Notes: generated from the letters alone by a model not told the origin. DNA of 64,000 bases from Thermoleophilia bacterium (GCA_027493445.1 JAOSKU010000001.1:1803936-1867935), one strand, 5' to 3'. Shown: positions 38,972-62,257, counted from the first letter of the stretch. Program-made: numbers and translations.

Positions 38972-39908
38972 TCAGGTTCCTCTAGCTTCCAATCGCTGTC
39001 GCAAGTTCTGCACTTTCCAGGCCATGACGGGGTCCATGGATGCCCGCTCGAGCACACCCGGATACTCGGCCAGCAGTAGCACGGGGCGATACACCGCGTC
39101 CTCACCGAGCAAGCGCATGAACTCCCGTTCGGCCTCGGAACTCGAGCTCAATGGAGAGAGCCACCGCGCCACCGCCTCAAGCATGACCACGTGGCTGGGC
39201 GCCTCATCAGCTCGAAGCATCGCGAACAAAGGGTCAATGAATTCAGGTGCCGGATGGCGGAAGCGTTCCAGCGCGACCACCGGGTCTGTCACGAACGGGA
39301 ACGGGTCCGATGTGCAGATCGCTCGGACCGCGAGCGCCCGAGCAAGCGGGTCCTCCAAGAAGTCCAACACTGTGACGGCCAGCCGGTAAAGGTCGTACAG
39401 GTCCCGCGCGGCCAGGCGCTCCATCATGGCCTTGATCTTTCCGGCCACGAGTTCTGGCAGCCGCAGCGCCGGAAATGAGATCGGCGGGTCCGCGAATTCA
39501 CATGTCCGGTTTTCCGGCTCCAACAAGGGCACGCGGGCAAGGTAGCTGACGTCCACCTTCACGTGGCTACCCGGGTACTTCACGCGGTAGGTCTGACCGC
39601 TGTGCTCGTCGTTCGTACTCTGGACAAGATACCCGAGTGCTCCCACAACATCGCGGCATATCCACCTCCGCCCGCATGGAGCGCATGCCTTTCGCATCGG
39701 CGGCGCCCACGAACATGAGGTCGATGTCGACCGATAGCCTTGGCGCACGATCATGAAAGACGTTGAGCGCCGTCCCGCCGTGTAGAACAAAGACATTGCC
39801 CAACATCGGGTCCTCCCTGAGCGCCGAGAGTACCTCGAGCAGGCGCTCGACTTTGTCAACAACAATGGGGGCGAATCCGATCGGTAGAGTGAGAATGGGC
39901 CGGGTCAT
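38972..39908 (-). CDS. abiEii: AbiEii/AbiGii-family nucleotidyltransferase toxin (type IV TA), frameshift near 39700
   Basis: NTase motif VFVLHGGTALNVFHDRAPRLSVDIDLMF in ORF 39567-40067. C-terminal ..KIKAMMERLAARDLYDLYRL in ORF 38972-39865. The start overlaps the abiEi stop (ATGA). Confidence 0.7.
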
Positions 39909-40714
39909 CCTCGAGTCCACTCGCGATACGGTAGATCGGCCGGAACGTAGAGACGCCAACGGGCAACGAATTCCCGTTTGGACTCGCCAATGGCGGGAAG
40001 GAGCCGATAGGTCCCCCTGCCGAGCAAATCGCGCATCTCCTCGAGCACGGATGTGTCGACGCGCCAACTGTCGGCGAACATCTCGAGTGTCCAGCCGGCG
40101 CGGGCAGCCAGCGTCGGAGAGCCCAGCAGTCGCGCGTAGGCCGCGACTCGCTCGGGCGACATCGATGTGAACCCGCCGACACTGCGTAGCAGTTCTTCGA
40201 GCCCTCCGGCAAGACTCGGGTCGCGAAGGCAGTCGACGAGCGTGCGCTCCTTGGTGCTCACCGGCACTATCGCCTGCCCCGCTCTTATGCGTGTCACGAA
40301 CCCGCTCAACGTAGCTGAAGATCCCGGCACCAGAGGCGGCGCTACGCGACGGAACCGATAGCCGCGTACCTCGAAGTCACGTATCTTGGTGACAGAGGTG
40401 AAATACACGGTCCGCAGGGGCGAATGCGCAACGCCGTGCGCCTCGAGGGCTGTGTGGTGAGTAAGGACGGCATCTTTGGCAGCCTTCGCGGCTACCAGGT
40501 AGACATTGGGGACCCGATCGCGATACACGCCAATATTCGATGCATACAGACCCCGCCTCACTCGATAGGCCGAACCCCGCGCCACAGCGTTTTGCAGGTT
40601 TGCATAGCGAGTGCGTTCTGATACCGTCGGATCGACGCTAGCCACGTACTCCTCGAGGGTGAACACTTCATGGTCCTCGAGGAAACGGAGCGTCGCCGAG
40701 GCCTTGGTGTTCAT
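39905..40714 (-). CDS. abiEi: AbiEi-family antitoxin/transcriptional regulator
   Basis: 269 aa COG5340-like protein immediately upstream of the AbiEii gene. The promoter has the ATACGTAT palindrome and a TATTATAAC -10 element close to the ATG. Confidence 0.75.
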   Translation of the reverse strand: MNTKASATLRFLEDHEVFTLEEYVASVDPTVSERTRYANLQNAVARGSAYRVRRGLYASNIGVYRDRVPNVYLVAAKAAKDAVLTHHTALEAHGVAHSPLRTVYFTSVTKIRDFEVRGYRFRRVAPPLVPGSSATLSGFVTRIRAGQAIVPVSTKERTLVDCLRDPSLAGGLEELLRSVGGFTSMSPERVAAYARLLGSPTLAARAGWTLEMFADSWRVDTSVLEEMRDLLGRGTYRLLPAIGESKREFVARWRLYVPADLPYREWTRG

Positions 40715-40827
40715 AGCGCGGTTATAATACGTATATTCTTGTGCATTACGTGCCCATCATAACACCAGAACAGCCAACAAGCGAGATTGCTCCTCCGGCC
40801 CTCTCGTTTCATGACTACCAAGGCGCC

Positions 40828-41113
40828 CCTCTTCCTTCTCGACACCTGCATCCTGTCCGAACCTGTCATGCGCCGGCCGAACGCGGACGTGATGGCGCGT
40901 ATCCTCGAGCACCGGCACGAGGTGGCCACTGCAGTACCCGCCTGGCACGAGATCACCTACGGCTGCCGCCGCCTACCTCCGTCGCGGAAACGCACCCTCA
41001 TCGAGGACTACCTGGCTGCGACCGCGTCATCTGGGCTCCCAATACTGCCCTACGACACCGCCGCCGCCACCTGGCATGCGGCTGAACGCGCCCGCCTCGA
41101 ACGTGCCGGCGCC
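40828..41113 (+). repeat. Perfect about 286-nt direct duplicate of vapC(Z) 37700-37985; embedded in truncated ORF 40787-41152
   Basis: The two copies are identical base for base as far as I can align by eye. The copy ends inside the gene (..ERAGAL then unrelated TTHAAPRAVCL stop). The upstream context differs from copy 1. Confidence 0.8.
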
Positions 41114-41318
41114 CTCACCACCCACGCCGCGCCCAGGGCGGTTTGCTTGTAGCGCACCTTGACGTCGCACCAAGTGGGGAAGCAGACGAGTTCCCGATAT
41201 CGCCAAAGCTCGGTGAGACGAAGTGAAACTCACCCCCGAGACGGCTGGATGTGGCGCGGGCGCTCGGGTAGGAGGTCGGCCGGCACCGCAAGATCGGGCG
41301 AAGACCGGCCCGGCGCGG

Positions 41319-41666
41319 TCAGCGGTCTGCGCGCTGTCTCCTGAGAGCGGCGGCGACTCCAAAGGCGTGGAAGTAGCCGTGCCAGCTACGGGCGGTCGAA
41401 CCGAACCGGTTCTCCCCCAGGAAATAGTCGAGGAGGACCTCCCTGAGGCGGGTCAACTCCTTCAGGCGATGCCGATGCCGCGGATCTCCGATCGTCAGCT
41501 CGAGGAGCTCCAGCGCCCGCTCGAGTGCTTTCTGGCTGTAATCGGGGTTGCATTTCGCCGCCCAATTGAGCGCCCGCTCGACTTCGCTCCCCACGTTGGC
41601 CAACTGCTCGAGGAGGGTGAAGTCCCGCCACCGGCCAGCGGCCAACTCTGGATGCTGTACGCTCAT
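41319..41666 (-). CDS. Conserved hypothetical protein (115 aa), downstream partner of a translationally coupled pair
   Basis: MSVQHPELAAGRWRDFTLLEQLANVGSEVERALNW... No family confidently recognised. ATGA overlap with the upstream ORF. Confidence 0.5.
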   Translation of the reverse strand: MSVQHPELAAGRWRDFTLLEQLANVGSEVERALNWAAKCNPDYSQKALERALELLELTIGDPRHRHRLKELTRLREVLLDYFLGENRFGSTARSWHGYFHAFGVAAALRRQRADR

Positions 41667-42004
41667 GGTTCGAGCAGGGCTTCCACGATAGCGAGGACCC
41701 GGTCCCGGAGCACGGGATCGTCAACCCCGCGCGAACGGTTCCCCTGCGACGGGCGGATGTTGATCATGGAATCGAACTCGACGCGATCCGGGCCCGACAG
41801 CTCTGGATAGATGTTGATGCCCCAGAGGTCTTTCTGGGCGGACCCGTGTTCCAGGAGCAATGCTTCTTCGTCGGCGTGGAGCTCCCCGTCGACCGCCATA
41901 ACGCCGCGCTCCACATCGACGACGGCTTTGACGAGATCTCCAAACCCTGCCTGGGCCATGATCTCCAGGTCCGTGGTGGGGATGGGGTTGTCGATGATCT
42001 TCAC
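41663..42004 (-). CDS. Conserved hypothetical protein (113 aa), possibly DUF5674-like
   Basis: MKIIDNPIPTTDLEIMAQAGFGDLVKAVVDVERGVMAVDGELHADEEALLLEHGSAQKDLWGINIYPE. Coding-like codon bias. Confidence 0.5.
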   Translation of the reverse strand: MKIIDNPIPTTDLEIMAQAGFGDLVKAVVDVERGVMAVDGELHADEEALLLEHGSAQKDLWGINIYPELSGPDRVEFDSMINIRPSQGNRSRGVDDPVLRDRVLAIVEALLEP

Positions 42005-42026
42005 GGCCCGAATATAGCAGGCATGG

Positions 42027-42293
42027 CTACCTGGCGCTGGGTCGAGTGGCGGTCGAGAGGCAGCCGGCCAGATCGATGAACCGAGCCTTGCCCACGGTGG
42101 TCAGTTGATCACCCATGGCCTTGGCGGGCTTCCCTCTCAGCGTGACCAGAGCCTCGCTGGGATAAACAGGCTCCATGTTGCTCGTGAGCGGCACCACCTG
42201 CACCCGGTTCAGGTGCCGGTTCGAGGCGTCGTTGCTGATGATGAGCGCCGGGCGTTCTTTGCGAACGTTTGCGCCGTACGAGCATCTGGTATC
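42027..42293 (-). pseudogene. MazF/PemK toxin lacking N-terminus and with replaced 3' end
   Basis: ..GANVRKERPALIISNDASNRHLNRVQVVPLTSNMEPVYPSEALVTLRGKPAKAMGDQLTTVGKARFIDLAG.. A 90-nt near-identical copy of its 3' part is at 51518-51606. Confidence 0.5.
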
Positions 42294-42539
42294 ATGTACG
42301 GCATGGACGAGACGAAGCTTACGGTACGTATCCCGCGGGAAACGCTCGACGAAGCCAAGCGCTACGCTCGCGAGCACGACACCACGGTGAGCCGGTTGGT
42401 CATCACGCATCTCGAGCACTTGCGCCGAGACGACGACGCGCTCGCCGACGCACCCATCACGCGACGGCTGGTCGGTGCGCTCGCTCCCGAAGCCTCCATC
42501 CAGGAGTACCGGGACTACCTCGAGCGCAAGTATGCCTAG
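42294..42539 (+). CDS. Ribbon-helix-helix antitoxin
   Basis: MYGMDETKLTVRIPRETLDEAKRYAREHDTTVSRLVITHLEHL. Confidence 0.65.
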   Translation: MYGMDETKLTVRIPRETLDEAKRYAREHDTTVSRLVITHLEHLRRDDDALADAPITRRLVGALAPEASIQEYRDYLERKYA

Positions 42540-43023
42540 GAGGCCCCGGGTCCTGCTCGATGTCAACGTGGTCCTCGACGTGCTCCAACGTCGCGAGCCC
42601 TTATTCGAGGATTCCGCCTCCCTCATGGCCGCCGTGGAATCGGGCCGCTGCGAGGGTCTGATGGCCGCGCACACCGTCACCACCCTGTTCTACCTAGTGA
42701 CCAAGCACGCCTCCGCTGCAGTTGCGCGCGTCCAGGTCGTCGAGTTGCTCCGACTGCTCAAGGTGGCCCCCGTGGATCAAGGGGTGCTGGAAGAGGCGCT
42801 GGCTCTCCCGTACGGCGATCTCGAAGACAGCGTGCAGATGGCAGCCGCCGAGCGCGCCGGTGCGGAATACTTGGTGACGCGCGACCGAGCGGGCTATGCC
42901 GCCGGTCCCCTCCCCACCCTCACGCCCGGTGAGCTCCTAGGGCCTGGTGGGCGAGGTCTAGCTACCACACGGCGGAGAAGAAGGATGCGATTTCGCAGCC
43001 GGAGCCACGTAAGCGCCCCCTAG
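42532..43023 (+). CDS. PIN-domain toxin
   Basis: MPRRPRVLLDVNVVLDVLQRREPLFEDSASLMAAVESGRCEG... Overlaps the RHH stop. Confidence 0.75.
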   Translation: MPRRPRVLLDVNVVLDVLQRREPLFEDSASLMAAVESGRCEGLMAAHTVTTLFYLVTKHASAAVARVQVVELLRLLKVAPVDQGVLEEALALPYGDLEDSVQMAAAERAGAEYLVTRDRAGYAAGPLPTLTPGELLGPGGRGLATTRRRRRMRFRSRSHVSAP

Positions 43024-43076
43024 ACCACCCTCCTTTGCCCCACCGCCGCCACACGGGGGCGGAGGCCGCCGTTGAG

Positions 43077-43472
43077 CTACGCGAGCGGTACCAGGGCGAG
43101 GTCGGTTTGAGCGAAATCCCCTCCCAGGCAGAGCAAAGGCTGGCCGGCCAGCTTGGCCACGGCGTAACTCATGCAGTCCCCGTAGTTCAAGGCCGCGGGA
43201 TGTCGGCCCTTGCCGAAGCGCAAGAAGGCCTCCGTCGCTTCGTCCCAATGGGCGGCGGCGAAAGGCAAGACTGCGATCTCGTACTCCTGAAGGAATCGAG
43301 CCAGCTTGGGACGCGCATCGCGATCGAGGCGGGCCGACAAGACGAGCGTGGCCTCAGTCAACGTGGGCGCCCCCACAGCCAGGGACTCATCGCCTTCAAG
43401 ACGGTCCACTACGGCTTGGAAGCCCGGCTCACGCAGGACAACGGCCACCATGGCCGAGGTGTCGAGGATCAT
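43077..43472 (-). CDS. vapC: VapC PIN toxin (family X paralog)
   Basis: 131 aa, closely similar to 18022-18417. Confidence 0.85.
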   Translation of the reverse strand: MILDTSAMVAVVLREPGFQAVVDRLEGDESLAVGAPTLTEATLVLSARLDRDARPKLARFLQEYEIAVLPFAAAHWDEATEAFLRFGKGRHPAALNYGDCMSYAVAKLAGQPLLCLGGDFAQTDLALVPLA

Positions 43473-43741
43473 ACGCCGTGGGGGCCGTAGCCCAAGATCT
43501 CGTCGTCGAGCTCTTCGTCGTGCGGCTTATCCAACAGCTCAGCGGGGATGTCCACCCAGATCTCTCGCTCCAGAAAGCGCCGCCGCTGGGCCGTGCGCGC
43601 GACGCGAGACACGCGCAGCGTGAGTCTGTCTCGTTTCTCCTCGAGCGCCTGCCGTACGGCTTGGGTCTTGTTCTGGCCGCTCAACCGCGCGACTTCTTCA
43701 GCCAAGCGCTCGACCTCCAGGTTCTTGATCGTCAACGCCAT
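43469..43741 (-). CDS. vapB: VapB antitoxin (family X paralog)
   Basis: MALTIKNLEVERLAEEVARLSGQNKTQAVRQALEEKRDRLTL. Confidence 0.8.
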   Translation of the reverse strand: MALTIKNLEVERLAEEVARLSGQNKTQAVRQALEEKRDRLTLRVSRVARTAQRRRFLEREIWVDIPAELLDKPHDEELDDEILGYGPHGV

Positions 43742-44233
43742 GATCCCTCCGCTACCCGCGTATCACCTGATGCCCATGATACCAGAATACTGAACGAATA
43801 CACCAAGCAGTAATACCGTCGCGATCCGGGGCACGATCATTGCGTGAGCAGGACCACCTCACGTCCTTCCAAGTCCGTATCCTCCTTGTGAGACGCATGG
43901 GCCCGCCGACCTCGGACCGAGGTCGCGCAGAAGCCCGCGTGGCCTTGCTCCACTATCGCGACGCGGGTCGGACGGACGGCCAGGCACTCGGCCTCGTCCA
44001 GGCCCCGGGTCCAGCTCGATGTCAAGGTCGTCCTCGACGTGCTCCAGCGTCGAGAGCCCTTTTTCGAGGACCGCGCCTCCGTAATGGCCGCCGTGCAATC
44101 GGGAGGCTGCGTACCGGGATCTTCGGCCATGCGGACGAGGAGATTGTGAAGTACCTGAGCCACCTCCCCCCGGGGCATGCTCGACCAGGGGCTCAGATCG
44201 GCCAGCGGGGTCCCCTCCAACAGATCGTTGTAC

Positions 44234-44683
44234 TCAGCCATGCGGGCATTTGGGCCCGTGGATCGCGTCGAAGCTCGTGCCCCAAGTACCCTGGTAGCTC
44301 TCCGGAGGGAGTAGGAGAGTTACGGCGAGTAGATTCTGAGCCGCCCGCACCACCATGGTGATGACTTGAGCTCGCGAGATCTCGTCTGCGGGAGCGAACA
44401 CACCTGGCCCATCGGTGAGCCCGTGGGCAAACGCCACCGCGATATAGCCTACCGGGTAGGGGTACGCCCTCCAGACGGGAATCTGCGGCCGGAAGGTGCC
44501 GTCGACGTAGCCGTTGATAATGCCGCGAGCGGAGAGGTCGCCGATGGCGGAGCCGTACTCGGGGCCGGAGACATCGGTGAAGACGAGCGCCGGTACCGTC
44601 AGCCGGCAAGCAATGACGCCGTGCACCCCAGAACCATCATCCACCGCTTCGCCTCTGCCTGCTTGGTGGTATCGAACGCGCAC
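44234..44683 (-). pseudogene. Orphan internal fragment of an S-layer-homology (SLH) domain protein
   Basis: Two SLH repeats (FTDVSGPEYGSAIGDLSARGIINGYVDGTFRPQ and FAPADEISRAQVITMVVRAAQ). There is no signal peptide upstream. The downstream side runs into an RHH/PIN remnant at about 43900-44100. Confidence 0.55.
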
Positions 44684-45152
44684 CCTCGGCGCGGGCTCCC
44701 ACTATCGCTCAGCGCCGCGCATCGAACGCGGTTAGGAGACTCGCGCCTGGGACGATCCTGGCCACCACGTGACGCTCATCCTCCCATTGCGTACGGGCCC
44801 GCCTCCCATCATCAGACTGAGGAACGAGCTCGAAGGCGAGGAGTTCGAGTACGCAGCGCTCCTGAGCGCTCTCGAGGACTACGCCTACCCCGGGACAAGG
44901 TAACAGCCATGCTCCGGCGGGGCGACATCGTGCGCCTACAAATCACGCAAGGTGCGCCTCCTCGCCGCCGTCGTACGCTTGCTCGGGGGATCAGCAGAGG
45001 CCACGCGGGGGGCGTCGTGGACGAGGCTTTCAGGCGCATGCTCGACCGGTACGAGCTCCGGCGGACAGAGGACTACACCCGGGCCCGGGGACGAGAGGGC
45101 GGTGGCAGACCTCGACGTCGAATCTACCGCGCTGGTCCTGGGTTGAACATAC

Positions 45153-45217
45153 AAGGACAACGCATGGCGCCGCCCAGTGCGCTCCGGCGGCCGAGGTTTC
45201 TTTTCCGACAGCCTCCG
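45153..45217. repeat. Half-copy (one arm) of the long palindromic repeat element; near-identical to 55283-55352
   Basis: gaggacaacgcatggcgccgcccagtgcgctccggcggccgaggtttctttt(t)ccgacagcctcc. Confidence 0.6.
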
Positions 45218-45278: not shown

Positions 45279-46421
45279 CTAGACCAAGCGCCGCAGCAAC
45301 CCTTCCAAATCTACGACGGTGGCTTCGGTGGTGCCTCCTAGGCCCACCTTGTACTCTCGGCTCAGCACCGGAACCACCACCACCGCCTCCGCTTCCGAGT
45401 AGGCGCGTTTGAGCGCGGCGAGCCCGCTCACATCCCGAAGGGACGCTTCAGACCAGGTGCATTCGACGGCCAGTAGACCGCGCCCCCGGCGCATGACCAC
45501 GAAATCCACTTCCTGCCCGTGCTTCGTCCGCCAGTATCGCGGTTTTACCAAGGGAGCGCGGGCATGGATCTCGTTCAAGACGTAGTGCTCCCAGAAGCAG
45601 CCATAGTCTTCCGGTCGCGGCGAGGCCAGGCCCCGGGCGTGACGAACAAAGCCGGTATCAAGCGCATAGACCTTGGGGGCCTTGACAATCTCCGAGGCCC
45701 GACGGGTGGAGAAGGGAGCAAGGACATGGGCCACCCTCGTTTCCTGGAGCACCTGCAGGTAGTTCGAGATCGTGGGACGGCTCGCCTCGCAGGGACCGGT
45801 GTAAGTCGTCGCCTCAAAGATTCCTCCGCTGTTCAGCAGCAGCATCTCCGTGAAGCGCCGAAACGAACTGCGCCGCTCAATGCGGAAGAGCTCCTGGATA
45901 TCTCGAGCCCAGAACGCATCGAGCCATTCCTCGAACTCTGCCGCGGCGCTATCTGTCCCCCCGAGAAAGAAGGGGGGAACCCCGCCGTTCCAGAGGCGGG
46001 TCTCCAGACTTCCGCCGAACTCCTCAAGATCACGGGACATCATGGGCGTCAACCACACCGCTACTTTGCGCCCCGCGAGGGTATCCGAGAATTTGGCCGT
46101 AGCGGCCAGGGTCGAGGAGCCGGTCGCCACCACCTTGACATAAGGGTAGTGATCCGCTGCGATCTTGAGCACCTCGGAGGGACGGGGCAGCCGGTGGATC
46201 TCGTCAAGCACAATACGCTTGCCCCGAAGACCCGCCAGAAACCGCTCGGGCTCAGCCAACTGCCGCCGCACAGTGGGCAGCTCACAGTCGAAATACTCGG
46301 CAGAATCCAAACTCTGACAGAGAGTCGTCTTGCCGATGCGGCGGACGCCAAACAGCCACACCACCGAACGCCGCCGCCACCCTTCTTCGATTCGTTCTAT
46401 CCAGAAGCTTCTTTGAACCAT
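45279..46421 (-). CDS. DUF4143/COG1373 AAA+ ATPase
   Basis: Walker A GVRRIGKTTL and Walker B RIVLDEIHRLP. 380 aa. Confidence 0.8.
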   Translation of the reverse strand: MVQRSFWIERIEEGWRRRSVVWLFGVRRIGKTTLCQSLDSAEYFDCELPTVRRQLAEPERFLAGLRGKRIVLDEIHRLPRPSEVLKIAADHYPYVKVVATGSSTLAATAKFSDTLAGRKVAVWLTPMMSRDLEEFGGSLETRLWNGGVPPFFLGGTDSAAAEFEEWLDAFWARDIQELFRIERRSSFRRFTEMLLLNSGGIFEATTYTGPCEASRPTISNYLQVLQETRVAHVLAPFSTRRASEIVKAPKVYALDTGFVRHARGLASPRPEDYGCFWEHYVLNEIHARAPLVKPRYWRTKHGQEVDFVVMRRGRGLLAVECTWSEASLRDVSGLAALKRAYSEAEAVVVVPVLSREYKVGLGGTTEATVVDLEGLLRRLV

Positions 46422-48335: not shown

Positions 48336-48357
48336 CGGCCGTAGGCGCAGGTGCGGC

Positions 48358-48795
48358 CTATGATGTATCGATGGACGACTTGTAAGGCAGCGCCTCCATC
48401 GGGAGGAGCCCGGTCAAGGCATCGAATTCGGGGTCGTTGTGGATCAATACCGCATCTCTCCGGAGGGCGAACGCGGCGATGATGGCATCGGCCAGGGAGA
48501 TACGATGTTCAGCCTTCAGCCGGGCGGCGGTCAGCACAGTCGATTCGTCTATATCCCACAGGATCTTGACGTTCAGTTGCTTGATCAAAGCAAAGCGGCG
48601 ATCTGCCTCCGCCACACCTTCTTCCTGCAGGGTAATGTAGTGTGTTTCCAGGAGAACCGGCCAGGGCAGGAGCGTCGTTGCCTGCTTCAGCGCCTGTTCG
48701 ACGCGGTCCGCACCTGCTTCGTCCTCGATGAACGCCAAGAGCGCCGATGTGTCAACCAGATAGGGGTTGGATCCGGTCTCGACAGTCGCGGCCAT
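48358..48795 (-). CDS. vapC: VapC PIN toxin (family Y paralog of 19183-19620)
   Basis: MAATVETGSNPYLVDTSALLAFIEDE. Confidence 0.8.
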   Translation of the reverse strand: MAATVETGSNPYLVDTSALLAFIEDEAGADRVEQALKQATTLLPWPVLLETHYITLQEEGVAEADRRFALIKQLNVKILWDIDESTVLTAARLKAEHRISLADAIIAAFALRRDAVLIHNDPEFDALTGLLPMEALPYKSSIDTS

Positions 48796-51426: not shown

Positions 51427-51633
51427 TCAAGTCCGCGCGGGAGCGACATCTCCCAGCCCAAGCTGCACCATCACCGCCCGCTCCACCCGTTGAAGCTCGG
51501 AAGGCGAGAGGCGGCCGGCCAGATCGATGAACCGAGCCTTGCCCACGGTGGTCAGTTGATCAGCCATGGCCTTGGCGGGCTTCCCTCTCAGCGTGACCCC
51601 CCGCCCTTCGAGGAGCCGAAAGCGACCCACCAC
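51427..51633 (-). pseudogene. MazF C-terminal fragment (duplicate of 42066-42155 region) with new 5' end
   Basis: ..VTLRGKPAKAMADQLTTVGKARFIDLAGRLSPSELQRVERAV.. The N-terminal 60 aa of a MazF are missing. Confidence 0.5.
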
Positions 51634-51935: not shown

Positions 51936-53084
51936 CTATCCGGGGTAGTCCCAGGCCGGGCCGAGATCGCGCACGGGAACCACCCAGATATCCTCCGCCA
52001 GCCGATAGGCCGTGCGGCCGGGATACACGACCCACAGACCGGCCAACTCAAGGTCCTCCATCGCGGCCTTCATGGAGCGGGTGAGTCGCGGCGCGTCCTG
52101 GTACTTGCACTCCACTCCCCACGTGCGACCACCCCACTGCCAGAAGAGATCAAGCTCAGCCCCCGCGTGGGTGCGCCAGAAGTAGAGTTCGTGGTCTTCG
52201 CGACCCAGCGCACGGCCGACCACCTCCAGGGCGAAGCCCTCCCACGAGGCACCCAACGCGGGGGAAGACTGCAGCTGCTCGAGTGATTCCAAGGAGAGCA
52301 GGGCATGAAGGAGGCCGCTGTCGCGCAGGTAGAGCTTGGGCCGGCGCACAACGCGTTTGCCGACGTTCGCCGCCCAGGGCTGAAGAAGGCGGATCATGAA
52401 CGCGCCCTCGAGGATCTCGCAATACCTGCGCACCGTCATGTCGGACACGGCGAACGAGCGCGCCAACTCGGAGTAGTTGAGCATCTGACCGTGGTAGTGG
52501 CTGAGCATGGTCCAGAAGCGACGCAGGGTGCGCGCCGGGATGGTGATGCCGAGCTGCGGGATGTCCCGCTCGAGGAAGGTCGAGATATACTGCCGGCGCC
52601 AGACGAGGCTTTCTTCTTCCGTGGATGCCAGGAACGAGCGCGGCAGTCCGCCTCTCAGCCAGAGCGTGGTGATGCTCTCCGGCCCTACGTCGCTCACGCG
52701 GAAACCGCTCAGTTGATGGAAGGCGATACGGCCCGCCAGTGTCTCTGAGCTCTGTCGCAGGAGGTCACGAGACGCGCCTCCCAGGATGAGATACTTCTGA
52801 CCCTCGCCGCGGTCGACCAGGTAGCGAAGCAGAGGGAAGAGGTCGGGCAGGCGCTGGATCTCATCGATAACGATCAAACCCCTCAGCTCTTCGAGGGCCA
52901 ATTGCGGTTGCTCCAACCGGGCGAGATCGCGCGGGTTCTCGAGGTCGAAGGAGTGGTCCGCTTTGAATGATCGGGCCAGCGTTGTCTTCCCGCACTGGCG
53001 TGGCCCCAGGATGGCCGTGACCGGAAAGGCGGCCAAGAGCTTGGAGACGGCCTTGAAGTCCTGTGTCCGCAGGATGAGGCTCAT
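51936..53084 (-). CDS. DUF4143/COG1373 AAA+ ATPase
   Basis: Walker A GPRQCGKTTL and Walker B LIVIDEIQRLP. 382 aa. Confidence 0.8.
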   Translation of the reverse strand: MSLILRTQDFKAVSKLLAAFPVTAILGPRQCGKTTLARSFKADHSFDLENPRDLARLEQPQLALEELRGLIVIDEIQRLPDLFPLLRYLVDRGEGQKYLILGGASRDLLRQSSETLAGRIAFHQLSGFRVSDVGPESITTLWLRGGLPRSFLASTEEESLVWRRQYISTFLERDIPQLGITIPARTLRRFWTMLSHYHGQMLNYSELARSFAVSDMTVRRYCEILEGAFMIRLLQPWAANVGKRVVRRPKLYLRDSGLLHALLSLESLEQLQSSPALGASWEGFALEVVGRALGREDHELYFWRTHAGAELDLFWQWGGRTWGVECKYQDAPRLTRSMKAAMEDLELAGLWVVYPGRTAYRLAEDIWVVPVRDLGPAWDYPG

Positions 53085-53463: not shown

Positions 53464-53639
53464 GCGCTTAGCAGGCTGCTGAAAAACGAAACCTCGGCCG
53501 CCGGACAGCACTGGGAGGCGTCGTGCGTCGTCCTCCGTCGCGCCCGTAGCGCTGCTACGAGCGCTCCCTGCGTCCTTGCCTGGCGCGTTCCCAGCACACC
53601 CCGGCGGCGAAGCGTCATTCTTCAGCAGCCCGTTAGCGC
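53464..53639. repeat. About 176-nt long imperfect palindrome (element B); arms about 87 nt around centre CGTAGCGCTGCTACG
   Basis: gcgcttagcaggctgctgaa...cgtagcgctgctacg...ttcagcagcccgttagcgc. The reverse complement of the right arm matches the left arm. The same family is at 55188-55358 (C, opposite orientation) and as a half-copy at 45153-45217. Confidence 0.6.
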
Positions 53640-54895: not shown

Positions 54896-55191
54896 GTCTC
54901 GAGGCCGCCGGCTGGCGGGTCGGGGACGCGGCCGACTTCCTCGGAATGAGTCCTGAGGAGGCCGCGTTTGTCGAACTCAAGCTGGCCCTCGCGGCTTACC
55001 TTCGAGACGTGCGTACGCAGCGCGGCTGGACGCAGGCACAGGTCGCCCGGCAGCTCGGTTCCAGCCAATCCCGCGTCGCCAAGATGGAAGCGGCGGATGG
55101 ATCCGTCTCCGTCGACCTGCTCGTGAAGTCGCTTCTAGCCCTCGGTGCCTCGCGCAAGGAAGTGGGCCGGGTCATCGCACGGGCGGCCTAG
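54874..55191 (+). CDS. higA: HigA-type XRE-family HTH antitoxin
   Basis: MDKTKKSRLEAAGW...TQRGWTQAQVARQLGSSQSRVAKME. Confidence 0.7.
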   Translation: MDKTKKSRLEAAGWRVGDAADFLGMSPEEAAFVELKLALAAYLRDVRTQRGWTQAQVARQLGSSQSRVAKMEAADGSVSVDLLVKSLLALGASRKEVGRVIARAA

Positions 55192-55358
55192 CAGGCTGTC
55201 GGGAAATGACGCTTCGCCGCCGGAGTGCGCTGGGTACGCGCCAGGCAAGGACGCAAGGAGCGCTCGTAGCAGCGCTACGGGCGCGACTGAGGACAACGCA
55301 TGGCGCCGCCCAGTGCGCTCCGGCGGCCGAGGTTTCTTTTTCCGACAGCCTCCTGGCA
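55188..55358. repeat. Long imperfect palindrome (element C), centre CGTAGCAGCGCTACG, between convergent higA and MNT
   Basis: This is the reverse-complement relative of element B. Confidence 0.6.
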
Positions 55359-55800: not shown

Positions 55801-55805
55801 GCAGA

Positions 55806-56348
55806 CTACCATGCGTATCGCCGTGGTGCGCCTCGAGGCCGAAGACTCCCGACCACCGTCTCGAAAGGAGGCAGGTCGGGAACGAGAGGTTCAAGCCACT
55901 GGTTCCAAGTGCTCTGGACGTGAGCAAGCATGACAGGCTGAAAGAAGTCTTCCGCACCCATGAACGTCACCTGACGGACGGCACATTTCGCGGCCACGAA
56001 CGACGCAAAGGCTGCGAAGTCCATCTGATCTCCGTAAGAGCCGAGGATGCGCCATAGATCATAGAAATCCCGGGCACGCGACCGACTCCAGCCCCGCTCA
56101 TTCAGCATTTCGACGTGCTGAAGGATAGCTCGAAGCTTCTCGGCGACAATCTCCTCCATTGAATACACGCGTACCGTCGCAGTGAGAGCCTCACCGTACT
56201 CGTGGAGTATCGCCCGGGACGGTGTCGGCTTGAACACCTGTTCGTCCATTGAGATCTCGACCATAACATGGGTGTGTGGTTGCCGGTGCCATGGGAAACG
56301 GGCTCTGACCGAGAAGGCTTCTTCAAGCCGACTGCGCAGGGGTCTCAT
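55806..56348 (-). pseudogene. AbiEii toxin lacking N-terminal nucleotidyltransferase core
   Basis: Only the C-terminal ..YSMEEIVAEKLRAILQ..RARDFYDLWRIL.. region is present. The GGTAL...DIDF motif is absent. Confidence 0.6.
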
Positions 56349-56965
56349 GACCCCGTTCTTCCCGGCAGATTCACCCGGATCATCCAGCGACGGTTGTATG
56401 GACCGCGACGGGGCCCGCTTGGGTCCAGATTCCGATAGCCGACGATAGGCAGCCCGGCGAGAGCGCGCAGCTTGTTCGGCAGAACCCCTGATTCTTCGAG
56501 CACCCAGCCCAGCCGCTTGGCCGTCGCCACATCAAGCCTGAGGGCATAGTCGATGATCCTGGAGAGGTCCAGGCGCTCGCCGCGCACCTCAAAAGCGTGA
56601 AGGCTCTCTGAAAAGTCACCGCAGTATTGAGGCCTTGACAACCCATCGAGCAGCGTGCGTTCGGGATCGGTTATCGCAACGCGAGCCTCGCCGATCCAGA
56701 CCTGTTCCGTCCCGAAGAACCATTCGCGCTTGGTCTGTACGAACTGGTAGATCGTGCCGGCAACGGAAAACCCGTCCGCCCCGCCGGCATCCCGGTGACC
56801 TCGAAAACGAGGTACAGGGACGTCCAACGGGGTCAGGACGAACACTCTCCGGGGAATCTGTTCGGTGAGGCCGTGATGGTGCATGGCCGACCAATGGCTG
56901 ATGGCGCTTGGACGAGCCAGGGCCATGGCTATTTCGAACTCATGAACAGGCGCAACACCCGGCAT
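56345..56965 (-). CDS. abiEi: AbiEi-family antitoxin/regulator
   Basis: 206 aa. ATGA overlap with the truncated abiEii. Confidence 0.7.
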   Translation of the reverse strand: MPGVAPVHEFEIAMALARPSAISHWSAMHHHGLTEQIPRRVFVLTPLDVPVPRFRGHRDAGGADGFSVAGTIYQFVQTKREWFFGTEQVWIGEARVAITDPERTLLDGLSRPQYCGDFSESLHAFEVRGERLDLSRIIDYALRLDVATAKRLGWVLEESGVLPNKLRALAGLPIVGYRNLDPSGPRRGPYNRRWMIRVNLPGRTGS

Positions 56966-57087
56966 GGCCGTGGAGACAGCGTAGAGTCCTTCTAAAGATG
57001 CGGTCCCCTTCGGCGACCATTCTGCGGACGAGTTCGATGCCGGCTCTAGTGTGGATGGGCTGTTCCCGTGTCATGCAGCAACTTTAT

Positions 57088-57118
57088 GGTGATTGTTCGC
57101 TGGTGTCCAACAATCGCC
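57088..57118. promoter_or_regulatory. Inverted repeat GGTGATTGTT(N11)AACAATCGCC upstream of abiEi copy 2
   Basis: Seen in the sequence 120-150 nt upstream of the start. Confidence 0.3.
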
Positions 57119-57375
57119 AGTACACTACTGTGGGGTTCCGGCCACTTGCGGCGAATAGTGTCTCATCAGGTCGACGCACAACAGGGTCTCGTTCACCGTC
57201 TCCCGCGGCGACAGGACCTTGGCGGAGACGGGCTCGCAATTGAGGAGCGGCGCCTCGGCAAGCCCTCTAAATCGCGCAGGAACGCAAGGATTCCCTGTGG
57301 CGCGACGCGATAGAGATCGGAAGGCAACGATGAAGCACCACGTCCTCCTAGGACGGCCCGGGAGCCCGATCTCTC

Positions 57376-58191
57376 CTACGTGCTCAGCAACCCGGCCGCA
57401 ATTTCAAAGGCCTCGTCGAAACCCAGCGAGTCAACCACCAGGTAGGCGAGGGACGACTCCCAACTGGCGCGGTACTCGGCTCGCCGGGCGCGGAACCGGG
57501 CGGCCGCCCCCTCCAGAACCAAAGCCTTGCGTTTGGTCTTGCGCGGCAACGCCTCGAGCGCGGCACCTGTGTCCGCTCCTCGGCGCACCAATTGCGCGAT
57601 GTCATAGACGTCACGGGCGATGGCGTAGCGTCGCTGTCCGCCAACCGCGCGCAGCTTCTCTGCGAGAATCTCCTCGAGCGCGTAGCATTCGACCGACGAC
57701 ACCCCCAGGCCGGCCGCGTCGTCGTACTCGTGCATGAGCGCGCGGTTGACCGCGTCGAACACGAGCTCCTCATCGGCACTCAAATGGAACTGCATGTTGG
57801 GCGGATTCGGCGTGCGCAAAGCCCCGCGGTAGGGCACCTTGATCTCGATTGACTCGCGACCGTGCTCATCGTTTTGGACGATCGTCCTCGCGTCTTCCAT
57901 GAGCAATCGAATGCCCGCACTGCCTGCCCTCGGCGCTGCGTTCTGCACCAGCGATAGCGCAACGGCAGGAGTCAAGCGACCCGCCACCGTGAAGTCCAAG
58001 TCCTCCGAGAAGCGGTAGTCGCCGAAGTGGCACTTGCGAAGGCAGGTCCCGCCCTTGAACACCCAGCGCGCTGACGAGAGATCCGGCGACAGGGCCCACA
58101 AGACAACCCCTAGCGCATGGTCGCGATCGATCACGGCGGGGTCCACGCCCAGCCTGCGGGCAAGGGACTTGACGGAGGCCTCTGGTATCAC
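57376..58191 (-). CDS. abiEii: AbiEii nucleotidyltransferase toxin (intact)
   Basis: VFKGGTCLRKCHFGDYRFSEDLDFT...YALEEILAEKLRA..ARDVYDI. Confidence 0.8.
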   Translation of the reverse strand: MIPEASVKSLARRLGVDPAVIDRDHALGVVLWALSPDLSSARWVFKGGTCLRKCHFGDYRFSEDLDFTVAGRLTPAVALSLVQNAAPRAGSAGIRLLMEDARTIVQNDEHGRESIEIKVPYRGALRTPNPPNMQFHLSADEELVFDAVNRALMHEYDDAAGLGVSSVECYALEEILAEKLRAVGGQRRYAIARDVYDIAQLVRRGADTGAALEALPRKTKRKALVLEGAAARFRARRAEYRASWESSLAYLVVDSLGFDEAFEIAAGLLST

Positions 58192-59018
58192 GCCCGGTCA
58201 TCTCCGTCGAATCCGCCCGCGTTCACCTGCAGGTTCCACCTACGCAGTGTTCGCCCGGTATGGGGACCGCCTCGCTCGAGCGAGGTGAAGCCCGCACCGA
58301 TCCGCGCCCGCCATGAGTCGAGCCACTCCTCCGCTCCCGGAAGTGCCGCGTTCTCCGCCAGAAAACCCAGGCGCTTGGGCACTGTCCCGCTGCTGAAACG
58401 CGTCATGTACGCACTGAGCTTCTGGAGGTCAAGCTGCGACCACGCCGCACGCAATGCGGGCATGACCTCGCCGATGCCCCCCGCGAGATCGGGGCGATCC
58501 ATGACGTCGACGATCGTGCGCTCGGGATCCGTCACCCGAACACGCAGGCCCCCACGCCATTCCTCGCTGATACCGAAAACCCTGACGGGCTTCAACGTGA
58601 CGAACTTGTAGGGCACGCCCAAGATGATCGCATGCGACTTGAACCGGCGCACCGGAGTCACGAAGAACTGCGTGCGTGGCAACTGTGTGGTCCATCCCCA
58701 GTGACGGACGGCGGTCCAGTAGGCCGCGCCCCCCTCCGGCACGAGGAGGCTGCCGATCACGAGGGGGTCCTCGCTCCAGTCACGATCGGTCCCAGCCGCG
58801 AGCGGAACGAGCATGTACTTGCCCCGCTCCAGTCGTTCGAGCCATCCTTTGCGCTCCAGTTGGGCCAAGGAGTTGCGTGCGTATTGCCCACCGCCCCAGA
58901 ACCCAGCCGCCTGCTCGAACGAGAAAACGTCCCGCCCTGCTCCGGCCATGGTAGCAAGGAACTCGGCCTCTCGCGGTCCAAGTTCCGTTATAGTTCGAGC
59001 CATGTTAATAACCTCCAA
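58188..59018 (-). CDS. abiEi: AbiEi antitoxin (intact)
   Basis: 276 aa. RBS GGAGG before the ATG. Confidence 0.8.
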   Translation of the reverse strand: MEVINMARTITELGPREAEFLATMAGAGRDVFSFEQAAGFWGGGQYARNSLAQLERKGWLERLERGKYMLVPLAAGTDRDWSEDPLVIGSLLVPEGGAAYWTAVRHWGWTTQLPRTQFFVTPVRRFKSHAIILGVPYKFVTLKPVRVFGISEEWRGGLRVRVTDPERTIVDVMDRPDLAGGIGEVMPALRAAWSQLDLQKLSAYMTRFSSGTVPKRLGFLAENAALPGAEEWLDSWRARIGAGFTSLERGGPHTGRTLRRWNLQVNAGGFDGDDRA

Positions 59019-59139
59019 ACAGTTATCTTCATGACGCGTACTATACTACAACGTCAGGGCCTGCCGTGCCCATCGACGACCGAAGCAGCCTCGAGCCCGG
59101 CCGAGGCATGATCCTCAACGCCGGCGGCGCGGGTGGTCA

Positions 59140-60330
59140 CGAGGGTGGCCGGCGACGAGTTGGTGACCTCGGATCGTGCACAGAGGGCGTATCTGAGAGG
59201 TTCCCGGCGCCGCGGTAATCGCTCGGCCTTGCGCTCCAGTCCGCGTATGAGCCTGCCTCCGTCTTCAGACCGGGTCCATTTGGCTTCCCCTACCAGCGTG
59301 GCCTCCCGAGCTCGAGCGTTCAGAACGACGGCGTCGATCGATGACGATGAGACCTCTCAGATCCTCCCGGGCCAGCTGCGACTTTACCGCCCCCGGTGCC
59401 ACTCCCAGGCGTCACGCACTATGTGCTCGAGTGACCCGCGCTCGGGGCGCCAGCCGAGCACTTCCCTGGCCCGCTCATTGGAGGCGATGAGGGTGGCCGG
59501 ATCGCCCGCCCGTCTTGGGCCCATGGTGATCTTGACTTCTCGCCCCGTGACCTCAGCACAGGTGCGCAGCACCTCCAGGCTGGAGAATCCGCGTCCGTTT
59601 CCCAGGTTGAACACTGCGCCCCGCCCGAGCCCGCCTGGACGCCAGCCTCCACACCCTCTGCCCCGCCCCCACCGCCCAGCCACTCTAACCCCAGCCTATG
59701 CGCCTCCGCCAGATCGAGCACGTGGACGAAAGTCGCGCACGTAGGTGCCATCGGGCGTGGGATAGTCGCTGCCGTTGACCTCGAACTCGGCCTTAACTCC
59801 GCCCATAGCCTGCAGGACCCGGGGAATGATGTCCGTCTCAGGTTCGTGCCTCTCCCCCAGAAAGCCGTCCGGCTAGGCCCCGGCCACGTTGAAGTAGCGG
59901 AACCTCACGGTGCGCAAGCCGTGCAGGAGTCCATACCAGTCGAGCAACTGCTCGAACATGAGCTTGGAGCCCCCATAGGCGTTCACGGGAAGAAGGCGCG
60001 CATCTTCGGGAATGGGTACGGCCTCGGACTCTCCGTAGACCGCCGCTGTGGACGAGAACACCAGTCCCCGCACCCCATGCCTCACCATGGCTTCCAGCAT
60101 GACCAAAGGAGCGGCCACGTTGTTCTGGAAGGAGCGTCCGGGGTGGGCCTGCGACTCGGCTACCTCGATGTAGCCGGCAAGGTGCATGACGGCGTCCATG
60201 CCGGGCAGGATCTGGTCGAGGAGCTCGGCGTCACCTACCCTGCCGACGACCAGCGTAGCCCGCGGGTCGACCGCCTCGGCGAGCCGGCGCCGCCGGTGAC
60301 GAGGAAGTTCATACGGTTAACCGTAGCAAG
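59140..60330 (-). pseudogene. galE: Decayed UDP-glucose 4-epimerase (galE) gene preceded by short DUF4143-ATPase fragment
   Basis: Segments MNFLVTGGAG.., ..MDAVMHLAGYIEVAESQ..LVFSSTAAVYGE..NAYGGSK.., ..[17 protein letters not shown].. and ..FNLGNGRGFSSLEVL..GWRPERGSL are spread over three frames, with an internal deletion after GGAG. Confidence 0.6.
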
Positions 60331-60796
60331 TGAGCGACGCGACAGGTACCACATGTTGATTTCCAGGCGCACCGACCAGTTGTTAGGGTACCGGCGGTCG
60401 AGCCGCAGGTGTCGTCGCGGGTCGAAGATACGGCAACTGCTTGAATGGGTCTTCGTCTAGCCCATTTTGATCCCCTGGATGAGTCGATGATGACCTCCAA
60501 ACGTTAGGAGTCGCACGCCCATGAAGTCGTAGGCTGGCGGCACGAAACCGTCGAGTTCCAAGGCCCGGGACCGACCTCAGGCGCGGTGGTTACCGAAACT
60601 CATTCCGCGGGGAAAGCCAGTTTCCACTATGCACCGCCCCGGCCATCCTGACGCCGGGGCAGCAGGGAGCCCATCGGACTTTGCTTGCACGGGACGGGGC
60701 CCATCCCCGGCCGTCGGGATACGTGTTCATTTAGAGCAGAAGATCGCCAATTCCGAAAGGAGTGTCTCTAAGAGGGCAATGCTCCAATAGAGAAGA

Positions 60797-60828
60797 TAAT
60801 CGCAAAAATCGCGATTAACCTCTATACT
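60797..60828 (+). promoter_or_regulatory. Operator/promoter of abiEi copy 4: TAATCGC aaaaatc GCGATTA inverted repeat overlapping -35, TATACT -10, GGAG RBS
   Basis: Read from the sequence directly upstream of the ATG at 60836. Confidence 0.4.
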
Positions 60829-60835
60829 GGAGCAC

Positions 60836-61660
60836 ATGGAACGACCGGTTCGCACTCTATCCAAGCGGGAGGCGGAGCTCGTCAGCTGGCTTGAAGCCGA
60901 GCGGCGGCTGAGCATCAGCCTGCCCGAGGTGAGGCGCACTCTGGGCTGGTCGGACTCCGTGGCTCGCAATACACTGTCACGGCTAGCCAAGAAGGGGTGG
61001 CTCCGTCGCACCGCCCTTGGCAGGTACGAGGCCGTTCTCGCCGAAACGGGCGGGTGGTCTGTCCCCAATCCCTGGGCGGCGCTGAGCACTTGGGGGCAGC
61101 GGTACTACGTCGGATTCAAGTCGGCCGCATATGAGCATGGTCTCACAGCCGATCGTCCGGGCAGTGTTCAGACGTGTGTGCCGACGGGCGCCCGCAGGCC
61201 GCTTTCGTGGGGCGACATTCCCATCGTCCTCATCTACCTCCCCAAGTTCGACTCGGCCGGGACGCAGTACAGGAAGCTGCATCAATTCGAGGTTGAGATC
61301 GCGTCGCCAGAGAAGATATTGGTCGACGGGGCTAGCCTTCCAGGACGCATGGGGGGTGTGCTCGGGCTCGCTCGGATCGTTGACCGCGCCGCGAACCAAG
61401 TCGACTGGGCGACCGTAGTTCAGCTCACGACTGCGTCACCCGGCGGGCGGGTGAGCCTGCGGCGGCTCGCCGCCTTGCTGGAGATCCTCGGCCGGGAGGT
61501 GCCGGATCCCCTGGCTAATGGGGCGACGGCGCGGCTGGGTGAGTCGGCACTCTTCCTCGGCGCGAGGCGAACGTACGGCGCACGCGGCGAGCGGCTGTCC
61601 CGCTGGCAGGTGATCGTCAATGTCGATCCGGCTGCGGTCCTCGAGGAGCTGCGACGCTGA
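60836..61660 (+). CDS. abiEi: AbiEi antitoxin
   Basis: 274 aa. LSKREAELVSWLEAERRLSISLPEV.. winged-helix N-domain. Confidence 0.75.
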   Translation: MERPVRTLSKREAELVSWLEAERRLSISLPEVRRTLGWSDSVARNTLSRLAKKGWLRRTALGRYEAVLAETGGWSVPNPWAALSTWGQRYYVGFKSAAYEHGLTADRPGSVQTCVPTGARRPLSWGDIPIVLIYLPKFDSAGTQYRKLHQFEVEIASPEKILVDGASLPGRMGGVLGLARIVDRAANQVDWATVVQLTTASPGGRVSLRRLAALLEILGREVPDPLANGATARLGESALFLGARRTYGARGERLSRWQVIVNVDPAAVLEELRR

Positions 61661-62257
61661 TGGTGCCGCTGGCCATCGTCCGACAGTACGCCGCCGGGCA
61701 GCAAATCAGCGTTGATGTGGCTGACCAGGAAATCGTCCTCCACTAGTGCGTCTTTGGCCACACCGGCCGCTTCTCGAAGGACATCGACTTCAGCGGTCAC
61801 GTCGCGTACGAGCACGAGAACGGCGCCGCCTCCACGGCCTCGACCCGTACGAGATGATCGCCGAGAAGATCATGGCCTGTAACCGTCGACGCGGCGGGTC
61901 CGCGAAGGATGTCATGACATGCTTCTCTGGTCCGAACGCCCTTTCAGTCATGACCTCGTCCGTCGCGTGGCTGTTCTGAAGGCGTGGACAGATCAGAGGA
62001 AGGCGCCGGCGTATGATCCCGACACCTTCGTGGCTGCGGTCGTGCCGGAAAACTACCGCTGGGAAGACCTGGAAGGACTGGTGCCTCGCCGCCTTCAGTC
62101 GAACCCTGAAGGCATCTGCGCCGCGGTCCGGAACAGGTTCGCTTTCCTGACCGCTAGCACCGAGCAGGAAGGCGTGCTCCTGGCTGATCAGGCATCGCAT
62201 CGCGAGGAGGACCTGTTCGGACAGCTCCGAGCCGAAGCGCGGTACTGGTCAGAATGA
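61657..62257 (+). pseudogene. AbiEii toxin pseudogene (in-frame TAG after 28 codons, deletion, frameshifts)
   Basis: MVPLAIVRQYAAGQQISVDVADQEIVLH stop, then ..FGHTGRFSKDIDFSGH.., ..DPYEMIAEKIMA.. and ..LKAWTDQRKAPAYDPDTF.. in different frames. Confidence 0.6.

Follow-up and report, generated by a model that had tools for sequence, protein, structure and literature searches.

Four distinct AbiE operons in a toxin-antitoxin island of an uncultured Thermoleophilia genome: one module whole, three probably inactivated recently and toxin first

The window analysed here, a 64,000-nucleotide stretch from the genome of an uncultured member of the Thermoleophilia (Actinomycetota; GCA_027493445.1, JAOSKU010000001.1:1803936-1867935), contains four copies of the toxin-antitoxin (TA) system AbiE. 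By homology an AbiE operon would encode a DUF1814 nucleotidyltransferase (NTase) toxin, AbiEii, and a two-domain antitoxin, AbiEi. We consider it highly probable that the four copies are distinct AbiE operons located in a TA island, that copy 3 is whole, and that copies 1, 2 and 4 were inactivated recently and toxin first. Only copy 3 still holds all parts of the AbiE mechanism. The other three were lost recently, through events independent of those in relatives and for the most part through deletions at microhomologies that struck the toxin gene in its catalytic half; antitoxin gene and promoter are still whole in copies 1 and 4, and the antitoxin of copy 2 has lost its DNA-binding domain as well. 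The family is known, the island typical and toxin-first decay to be expected, and there is no new kind of system, mechanism or principle.

An inspection of the DNA without database searches (the sequence-only reading) had placed AbiEi/AbiEii pairs at four sites, and this was borne out by the Pfam families PF08843, PF09407 and PF13338 as well as by the hidden Markov models (HMMs) of PADLOC, whose AbiEi/AbiEii models match all four loci with E-values from 1e-14 to 1e-61 (Table 1). A tblastn search of the window with its own proteins revealed no fifth AbiE copy. The antitoxin gene always comes first and the toxin gene follows directly downstream with overlapping stop and start codons (ATGA in copies 1, 2 and 3, TGATG in copy 4), an arrangement also found in the intact relatives L014, L015 and L018. 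On the PADLOC models AbiEi is full-length in copies 1, 3 and 4, with PF09407 and with or without PF13338, but not in copy 2, in which the winged helix-turn-helix (wHTH) has been deleted. The toxin motifs I (GG[ST]), II (DxD), III (K) and IV (RDxYD) are all present in copy 3 and all still encoded in copy 1, there in a broken frame; copy 2 is left without motifs I and II, and copy 4 lacks motif I and has its motif IV split by a frameshift.

Table 1. Positions of the AbiE genes, candidate promoter elements and further features in the window (best PADLOC models are given by their PDLC numbers).
Feature	Position	Strand	Remarks
abiEi-1, intact antitoxin/repressor gene, 269 aa	39905..40714	-	PADLOC PDLC02270, 5.7e-56, profile positions 5-262/265; Pfam PF09407
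abiEii-1 pseudogene	38972..39908	-	PF08843 split over two frames; repaired protein matches PADLOC PDLC02305 at 2.3e-58
abiEi-2 pseudogene	56345..57074	-	PADLOC PDLC02267, profile positions 65-243/252 only
abiEii-2 remnant	55806..56348	-	Pfam PF08843, profile positions 82-236 only; PADLOC PDLC02304
abiEi-3, intact antitoxin, 271 aa from ATG at 59003	58188..59003	-	Pfam PF13338 and PF09407; PADLOC PDLC02267, 6.7e-61, positions 2-242/252
abiEii-3, intact DUF1814 nucleotidyltransferase toxin, 271 aa	57376..58191	-	Pfam PF08843, 1.1e-30, positions 3-236/238; PADLOC PDLC02304, 3.8e-56
abiEi-4, intact antitoxin, 274 aa	60836..61660	+	Pfam PF09407, 2.9e-13; PADLOC AbiEi, 1.4e-29; PDLC02267 (next best PDLC02276)
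abiEii-4 pseudogene	61660..62257	+	C-terminal open reading frame (ORF) matches PADLOC PDLC02318, positions 185-270/280
ATACGTAT, 8-bp palindrome upstream of abiEi-1	40727..40734	.	overlaps weakly conserved AATRC-N13-GTATT inverted repeat
GGCGATTGTT-N11-AACAATCACC, operator-like inverted repeat (minus-strand reading)	57088..57118	.	just upstream of ancestral abiEi-2 start
TAATCGC-N7-GCGATTA, inverted repeat with 10-bp perfect palindrome AATCGCGATT	60797..60817	.	just upstream of TATACT -10 box of abiEi-4
AAA_14/DUF4143 ATPase	45279-46421	-	PADLOC candidate defence system PDC-S01, 2e-50; between AbiE copies
AAA_14/DUF4143 ATPase	51936-53084	-	PADLOC candidate defence system PDC-S01, 1e-78; between AbiE copies
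300-bp direct repeat (5' part of PIN gene of Phd/PIN pair)	37695-37994 and 40825-41124	left copy +	98% identity by repeat search (family D3), 99.7% by blastn; Logan contig L004 matches both
Degenerate NAD-dependent epimerase, direct duplication of ~870 bp	59338-60207 and 62875-63743	-	~90% identical (86-92%), spacing 3536-3538 nt (repeat families D5, D6, D8 and D11); Pfam Epimerase in both

The pairs lie close together, and copies 2 and 3, neighbours on one strand, have their best PADLOC sub-models in common, as might be expected if a single AbiE operon had been duplicated in tandem on the spot and the copies had then diverged and decayed. However, identity among the four pairs is only 25–34%, and for every copy the homologues in other genomes are far closer than the neighbours in the window. 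The closest relatives elsewhere are 76% identical for copy 1, about 89–90% for copy 2 and about 78% for copy 4 at the nucleotide level. Relatives furthermore hold the same modules in other neighbourhoods: orthologues of abiEi-1 and abiEi-2 are adjacent in L012, and L015 lies in a housekeeping context. Since mutual identity is this low and much closer homologues exist elsewhere, local duplication was rejected as the origin of the four copies. We regard it as extremely improbable, and by these comparisons the copies are separate lineages.

Copy 3 had been described as intact, and this holds for both genes, which are full length on Pfam and PADLOC. The toxin carries the motifs GGT, DLD, AEK and RDVYD in the contexts FKGGT, SEDLDF, AEKL and ARDVYD. 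AbiEi-3 has 271 aa in Logan gene calls too, and a 4-nt overlap couples the two genes. In a PDB sequence search AbiEii-3 had a sole match, 6Y56 (E=4.8e-9), which we take to be MenT4/Rv2826c of Mycobacterium tuberculosis; the same search gave no match for AbiEi-3. In published work, AbiEii toxicity needs motifs I–IV, the wHTH of AbiEi is needed for repression and its C-terminal domain (CTD) is sufficient for antitoxicity (PMC3985639). Based on the literature on AbiEii/MenT motifs and AbiEi domains we predict copy 3 to be a live module, with toxicity, autoregulation and phage defence expected from its intact motifs and its homology.

Lesions in the other copies were mapped against intact orthologous pairs, namely L018/L019 for copy 1, L014 for copy 2 and L015 for copy 4. 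In copy 1 the antitoxin has the length of its orthologues in L012 (269 aa) and L018 (268 aa), and the ATG of abiEii-1 (39908) overlaps its stop codon (ATGA). A single homopolymer frame break had been proposed for the toxin gene. The break is indeed single, but it does not lie in a homopolymer: the DNA alignment with the intact L018/L019 shows one lesion only, the loss of 5 nt between 39657 and 39656 (...GATATG^CCGCGAT...; window GAT ATG ^ CCGC GAT versus GAC GCG CGG TTC CGC GAG in L018). The N-terminal frame consequently stops at 39567-39569. Aligned with intact relatives of 313 aa the toxin shows 75–76% identity, and copy 1 is predicted to be one 5-nt repair away from a live module. The broken sequence was also found in four Logan contigs.

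Copy 4 is more heavily damaged. Its antitoxin is as long as the one in the intact pair of L015 (274 aa), and the toxin gene, whose intact relatives encode 309–314 aa, was compared with L015 by blastn and codon alignment. The sequence-only reading had noted an early TAG plus a deletion, and both are present; there are however four lesions, and the TAG is itself the product of a deletion. A 96-nt deletion removed the GGT motif and created the stop codon at 61744-61746 at its junction (CAC TA|G TGC). Further on, the gene has lost 120 nt in frame at about 61788, 109 nt out of frame at about 61828, and a single nucleotide within motif IV at about 61913.

In copy 2 both genes are broken. The toxin had been said to lack the whole nucleotidyltransferase core, and this is explained by a 330-nt in-frame deletion of codons 10–119, which joins codon 9 to codon 120 at a junction with GAAG microhomology (56316-56323), removes NTase motifs I and II and spares the ATGA coupling. 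In addition, the toxin gene has lost its last 12 codons to other sequence from about 55837 onward, where a repeat begins that is found upstream of other MNT genes (repeat family D7). Both copies 2 and 4 are predicted to be beyond function as toxins. All four antitoxins had been called intact, which is correct for copies 1, 3 and 4 with their full PADLOC matches, but not for copy 2. Its closest relatives (89–90% identity) are a 278-aa AbiEi (P0001, 89% identical) and an intact 292-aa AbiEii (P0007). The ancestral abiEi-2 ATG at 57074-57072 would have opened a gene of 278 aa, as in P0001 and L014, and start codon and promoter are still present. Alignment by blastn to L014 and L012 shows that 108 nt have been replaced by one base at about 56992, a net out-of-frame loss of 107 nt. 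This removed the stretch 'TMDRAREL...RLRK', the core of the wHTH, and left a 206-aa ORF (56345-56965) as a CTD remnant.

Could these frame breaks and deletions be sequencing or assembly artefacts of a long-read metagenome-assembled genome (MAG), all four modules being intact in reality? Other genes of the window are split too (a permease at 26920-28280, an epimerase at 62921-63864), as an error-prone assembly might give. However, Logan assemblies of five Sequence Read Archive runs in three accession series (SRR11288142, SRR25580095, SRR25580096, SRR25580097 and SRR8536199), which are short-read assemblies and were found by exact-protein look-up, are 100% identical to the window and gapless over all four copies and every lesion. 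Because of this agreement the lesions are not assembly errors; they exist in the DNA of the sampled population and not in one assembly. Furthermore, most lesions are deletions of 96–330 nt rather than homopolymer indels, and a search of 5.8 billion proteins returned no near-identical intact allele. An artefact is already largely refuted by these observations, and we find it hardly credible.

We next consider the order of loss. Within the window 8 separate lesions fall in the three damaged toxin genes and 1 in the three accompanying antitoxin genes. The proposal of toxin decay under retained antitoxins stands for copies 1 and 4, whose antitoxins (269 and 274 aa) are as long as in intact orthologous pairs, but fails for copy 2. 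Intact pairs occur in L018/L019, L014 and L015. Independent toxin lesions beside intact antitoxins are also found in relatives. In L012/L013, a Thermoleophilia MAG (GCA_054603895.1), an intact abiEi-1 orthologue without toxin is followed by an intact abiEi-2 orthologue with a broken toxin, which carries 155- and 83-nt deletions whose limits are unlike those of the 330-nt deletion in the window. In L017 the abiEi-4 orthologue is intact and the toxin is split by a 111-nt deletion and small indels. Both copy-1-type genes are broken in L020, where a 95-nt deletion spans the site of the window lesion, and L021 holds a copy-2-type locus with a different junction deletion. The lesions in the relatives are independent of those in the window.

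Two small surveys extend this comparison. A copy-2-type AbiEi profile was used to collect the best 80 loci from GTDB species genomes of many phyla, and a locus was kept if its AbiEi was intact and 900 nt or more of downstream sequence was available. Of the 69 loci retained, 49 had an intact toxin, 15 a disrupted one and 5 none, so that the toxin had been lost in 20/69 (29%). Conversely, a toxin profile was used to collect the best 80 metagenome loci, keeping those with an intact toxin and enough upstream sequence: AbiEi was intact beside the intact toxin in 42/44, and the other 2 are doubtful cases with very divergent toxins (at most 5%). The difference between toxin loss (20/69) and doubtful antitoxins (at most 2/44) is significant by Fisher's exact test (p=0.0012). 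These counts support toxin-first decay in the AbiE family. The order is ordinary toxin-antitoxin logic, as predicted for any pair, because losing the antitoxin first is lethal.

To what extent are the surviving genes under selection? Over intact genes and remnants alike the ratio of non-synonymous to synonymous substitution rates (dN/dS) ranges from 0.06 to 0.17. Pairwise values are 0.10–0.15 for abiEi-1 and 0.14–0.17 for abiEi-4, the latter with 36 synonymous and 11 non-synonymous changes in the window lineage. The dead genes look alike: in the same lineage we counted 29 synonymous and 9 non-synonymous changes for the copy 4 toxin remnant, 15 and 8 for the copy 2 toxin remnant, and 22 and 10 for the AbiEi CTD remnant of copy 2. 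Since the toxin remnants, with a dN/dS of about 0.1, do not differ from the intact antitoxins, all inactivations are recent when set against the split from the nearest relatives. The antitoxins may have had no time to decay and simply be next in line. Selective retention of the C-terminal toxin ORFs was considered as well and rejected as unsupported: compared with L015, dN/dS of the copy 4 toxin is low in its N-terminal part (0.06) and its C-terminal part (0.12), with no difference between them.

Orphan antitoxins have been linked to the idea of anti-addiction. In this sense the surviving pieces might be functional, AbiEi-1 and AbiEi-4 as orphan repressors or as anti-addiction factors against incoming AbiE elements, and the CTD remnant of AbiEi-2 as a buffer of the copy 3 toxin. 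The remnant follows copy 3 immediately, on its strand, and in Streptococcus agalactiae AbiEi the CTD alone suffices for antitoxicity (PMC3985639). The orphan AbiEi genes have a low dN/dS, the toxin-less abiEi-1 orthologue of L012 shows 18 synonymous and only 3 non-synonymous lineage changes, and an intact AbiEi without any toxin occurs in 5/69 surveyed loci. However, the dead toxin remnants have an equally low dN/dS, so recency explains the signal; AbiEi-2 and AbiEi-3 are only 34% identical, and by eye no Shine-Dalgarno-like sequence precedes the truncated abiEi-2 ORF. Such functions are in our view distinctly unlikely.

Some points weigh against a recent, toxin-first loss by plain decay as we describe it. 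The five Logan runs may all sample one population, so that the lesions need not be fixed across the species. Both surveys rest on the best-scoring 80 matches from two different collections, which makes their numbers rough, and some of the 'broken' toxins in MAGs could be assembly errors. Finally, the clustering of three roughly 100-nt deletions in copy 4, where a neutral substitution signal is nearly absent, agrees badly with simple neutral decay. The toxin lesions are microhomology-flanked deletions of 83–330 nt that cluster in the NTase half, in copy 4 with islands of about 40 nt between the three, and they recur at 61745-61830 in the window, 3573-3749 in L012, about 4896 in L017, about 4997 in L020 and about 3770-3817 in L021. 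Such a cluster could be one complex event or reflect selection for inactivation. Toxin loss might accordingly be non-neutral, driven by recurrent positive selection to disarm costly toxins or by deletion-prone repair, with AbiEi, even as CTD only, perhaps kept as orphan regulator or cross-protecting antitoxin; this we consider unlikely.

Each antitoxin gene had also been credited with a palindromic promoter element. The three palindromes quoted all exist, at 40727, 57088/57109 and 60797-60817, but their support differs. The element of copy 2 is well supported. It overlaps the TTGGACA -35 box, scores better than shuffled promoters (p=0.016) and is conserved in L012, L013, L014 and L021. It also matches a family element, ATTGTTyGAC-N5-6-CGAACAAT, which lies upstream of PDLC02267-type AbiEi genes in dozens of phylum-spanning loci (loci L022-L100, 90 nt upstream of AbiEi) and has a co-varying variant ATTGGA-N5-TCCAAT. 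This element is usually present twice, over the -35 box and over the start codon, and once in the Thermoleophilia/actinobacterial clade. Published operators of AbiEi and Rv2827c consist of 23-bp inverted repeats with 3 or 13 bp between them (PMC7319586), and as a candidate the copy 2 repeat is compatible with these in scale.

The remaining promoters gave weaker signals. In copy 4 the left half-site and the -10 box are kept in L015 and L017, the right arm is not, and the repeat (shuffle p=0.064) is lineage-specific. For copy 1, the window contains 369 8-bp palindromes, ATACGTAT among them, the best inverted repeat of the promoter is at chance level (shuffle p=0.44) and ATACGTAT is not kept as a palindrome in L012 or L018; it was therefore rejected as copy 1 operator. 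The copy 3 promoter, for which no element had been quoted, contains no inverted repeat above chance (shuffle p=0.42). Among the four, only the copy 2 palindrome is thus a well-supported candidate for a family-conserved operator. With it a candidate family-wide operator motif is gained for one large AbiEi subfamily.

The modules closely resemble characterized AbiE systems. AbiE of S. agalactiae and Lactococcus is likewise bicistronic, antitoxin then toxin, with overlapping stop and start codons. AbiEi there also consists of a wHTH and a CTD, AbiEii is a DUF1814 NTase with motifs I–IV, and inverted repeats overlap the promoter (PMC3985639, PMC7319586). Compared with these systems, sequence similarity here is detectable through HMMs only, and the copy-2-type candidate operator is one 8+7+8-bp palindrome over the -35 box instead of the two 23-bp repeats 3 bp apart of S. 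agalactiae. The AbiEi proteins described here (269–278 aa) are presumably longer than that of S. agalactiae. Large size is a point in common with Rv2827c, an AbiEi homologue described as exceeding that of S. agalactiae in length (PMC7319586). MenAT4 of M. tuberculosis (Rv2827c/Rv2826c) is moreover actinobacterial and, as 6Y56, provides the sole PDB match of the copy 3 toxin, whereas for the copy 3 antitoxin no PDB sequence was matched. Inverted repeats are found in the promoters PabiEi and Prv2827c (PMC7319586). M. tuberculosis encodes four DUF1814 toxins (PMC7319586), and the genome of the window likewise holds several paralogous modules; here, in contrast, a single island holds four of them within 24 kb, three in pseudogenised form.

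tRNAs are modified by MenT toxins, whose antitoxins cause the toxin to phosphorylate itself (PMC11375011). A 2026 preprint describes auto-phosphorylation for S. agalactiae AbiEii too and suggests moving AbiE, first classed as a type IV toxin-antitoxin/abortive infection system, to type VII (bioRxiv 10.64898/2026.01.19.700257). By homology, the copy 3 toxin might act like the MenT toxins of M. tuberculosis, which modify tRNAs and block translation, and the antitoxin CTD would neutralise it, by the recent proposal through induced toxin auto-phosphorylation.

Degenerate TA loci and orphan antitoxins are known from chromosomal TA islands, and as here the toxin is inactivated while antitoxin and promoter persist. 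Orphan antitoxins, like cross-interactions between antitoxins, are a subject of PMC7354431. Relative to these loci in general, the present set adds a well-mapped AbiE example and a small cross-phylum survey. It is a clean case of the death of an abortive-infection TA system, in which the catalytic half of the toxin goes first and antitoxin and operator outlast the toxin. The survey suggests that about a quarter of genomes with a copy-2-type AbiEi have a disabled or missing toxin beside it. NCBI annotates such remnants as ordinary proteins, for instance a 224-aa 'nucleotidyl transferase AbiEii/AbiGii toxin family protein' and the 112-aa hypothetical M5U22_09465 (P0123, P0288), and because of this automated AbiE counts would be inflated. 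PADLOC-style HMM matches to AbiEi or to the C-terminal part of AbiEii will in the same way over-count functional AbiE systems.

Turning to the setting, the window has a G+C content of about 65%. Its left half looks chromosomal, with glycosyltransferases, an ABC exporter, an InhA-like peptidase, a GGDEF protein and a histidine kinase/response regulator pair. Beyond about 33.6 kb Pfam and PADLOC reveal a dense toxin-antitoxin and defence island with PIN_3, HEPN/MNT, Phd/PIN, PemK, VapBC with an Rv0623-like antitoxin, RHH/PIN, MazE/PIN and a second MNT gene; MazEF is among the TA systems represented. The location of the AbiE copies beside PDC-S01, HEPN-MNT and VapBC is circumstantial evidence bearing on phage defence. 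tRNA and Rfam scans of the whole window found neither a tRNA gene nor an Rfam family, and hence nothing that points to a tRNA-anchored island or a known RNA element.

The island is also littered with debris: fragments of IS1595 and Mutator transposases, an SLH fragment, two degenerate epimerase copies and PIN fragments at 38355-38942 and 40787-41152. An arms-race turnover had been suggested in the sequence-only reading; these gene fragments around the AbiE copies fit general erosion of a plastic island. Decay might then not be specific to AbiE at all, the modules being part of the debris of an island eroding as a whole, with neither an arms race nor antitoxin retention. This would agree with the segmental direct repeats on either side of copies 1 and 4, with the loss of both genes in copy 2 and with toxin remnants that have the same dN/dS as the intact antitoxins. 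However, lesions are concentrated in the toxins, 8 versus 1 in the window and 29% versus at most 5% family-wide. We regard general erosion as a serious possibility that falls short of being probable. It is compatible with recent toxin-first inactivation of distinct AbiE operons, the explanation we prefer, and differs from it mainly in emphasis.

The island has evidently been rearranged often. The 300-bp PIN repeat brackets AbiE copy 1 at a spacing of 3130 nt; since the relative L020 is without about 1.9 kb at 37067-38970, it looks like a recent duplicative insertion. Its right-hand copy is an orphan PIN fragment without a Phd gene. The epimerase copies bracket AbiE copy 4 as direct repeats and, unlike the toxin pseudogenes, differ from each other by 1-nt indels only. 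Many TA modules of the window form paralogous pairs at 86–98% nucleotide identity, which indicates that TA cassettes are often duplicated within this genome. Such segments are 18002-18769 and 43057-43822, 19181-19480 and 48356-48655, 20349-20407 and 37370-37428, and 42054-42147 and 51505-51598; they include VapBC, PIN and a Phd promoter with a ATGGCTAT..ATAGCCAT palindrome. In addition, a 167-nt inverted repeat (53470-53636 / 55188-55354, 86% complementary) flanks the PIN/MazE module and small ORFs. A partial copy lies at 45154-45216 and the same element occurs in L012 (978-1152); either a small mobile element or a small gene present in several copies is conceivable.

Among the TA pairs a 113-aa DUF5674 protein (E=7.7e-36) overlaps the start of a 115-aa ORF without Pfam match (41319-42004, minus strand), and the two may form an uncharacterised two-gene module. 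Outside the island, the amino-acid permease at 26920-28280 (minus strand) is split into two ORFs matching Pfam profile positions 1-254 and 267-425, and a 712-aa ORF at 22579-24717 (minus strand) joins ETF domains, among them a truncated ETF-alpha, to uroporphyrinogen decarboxylase. These two cases suggest that pseudogenes or fusions also occur beyond the TA island.

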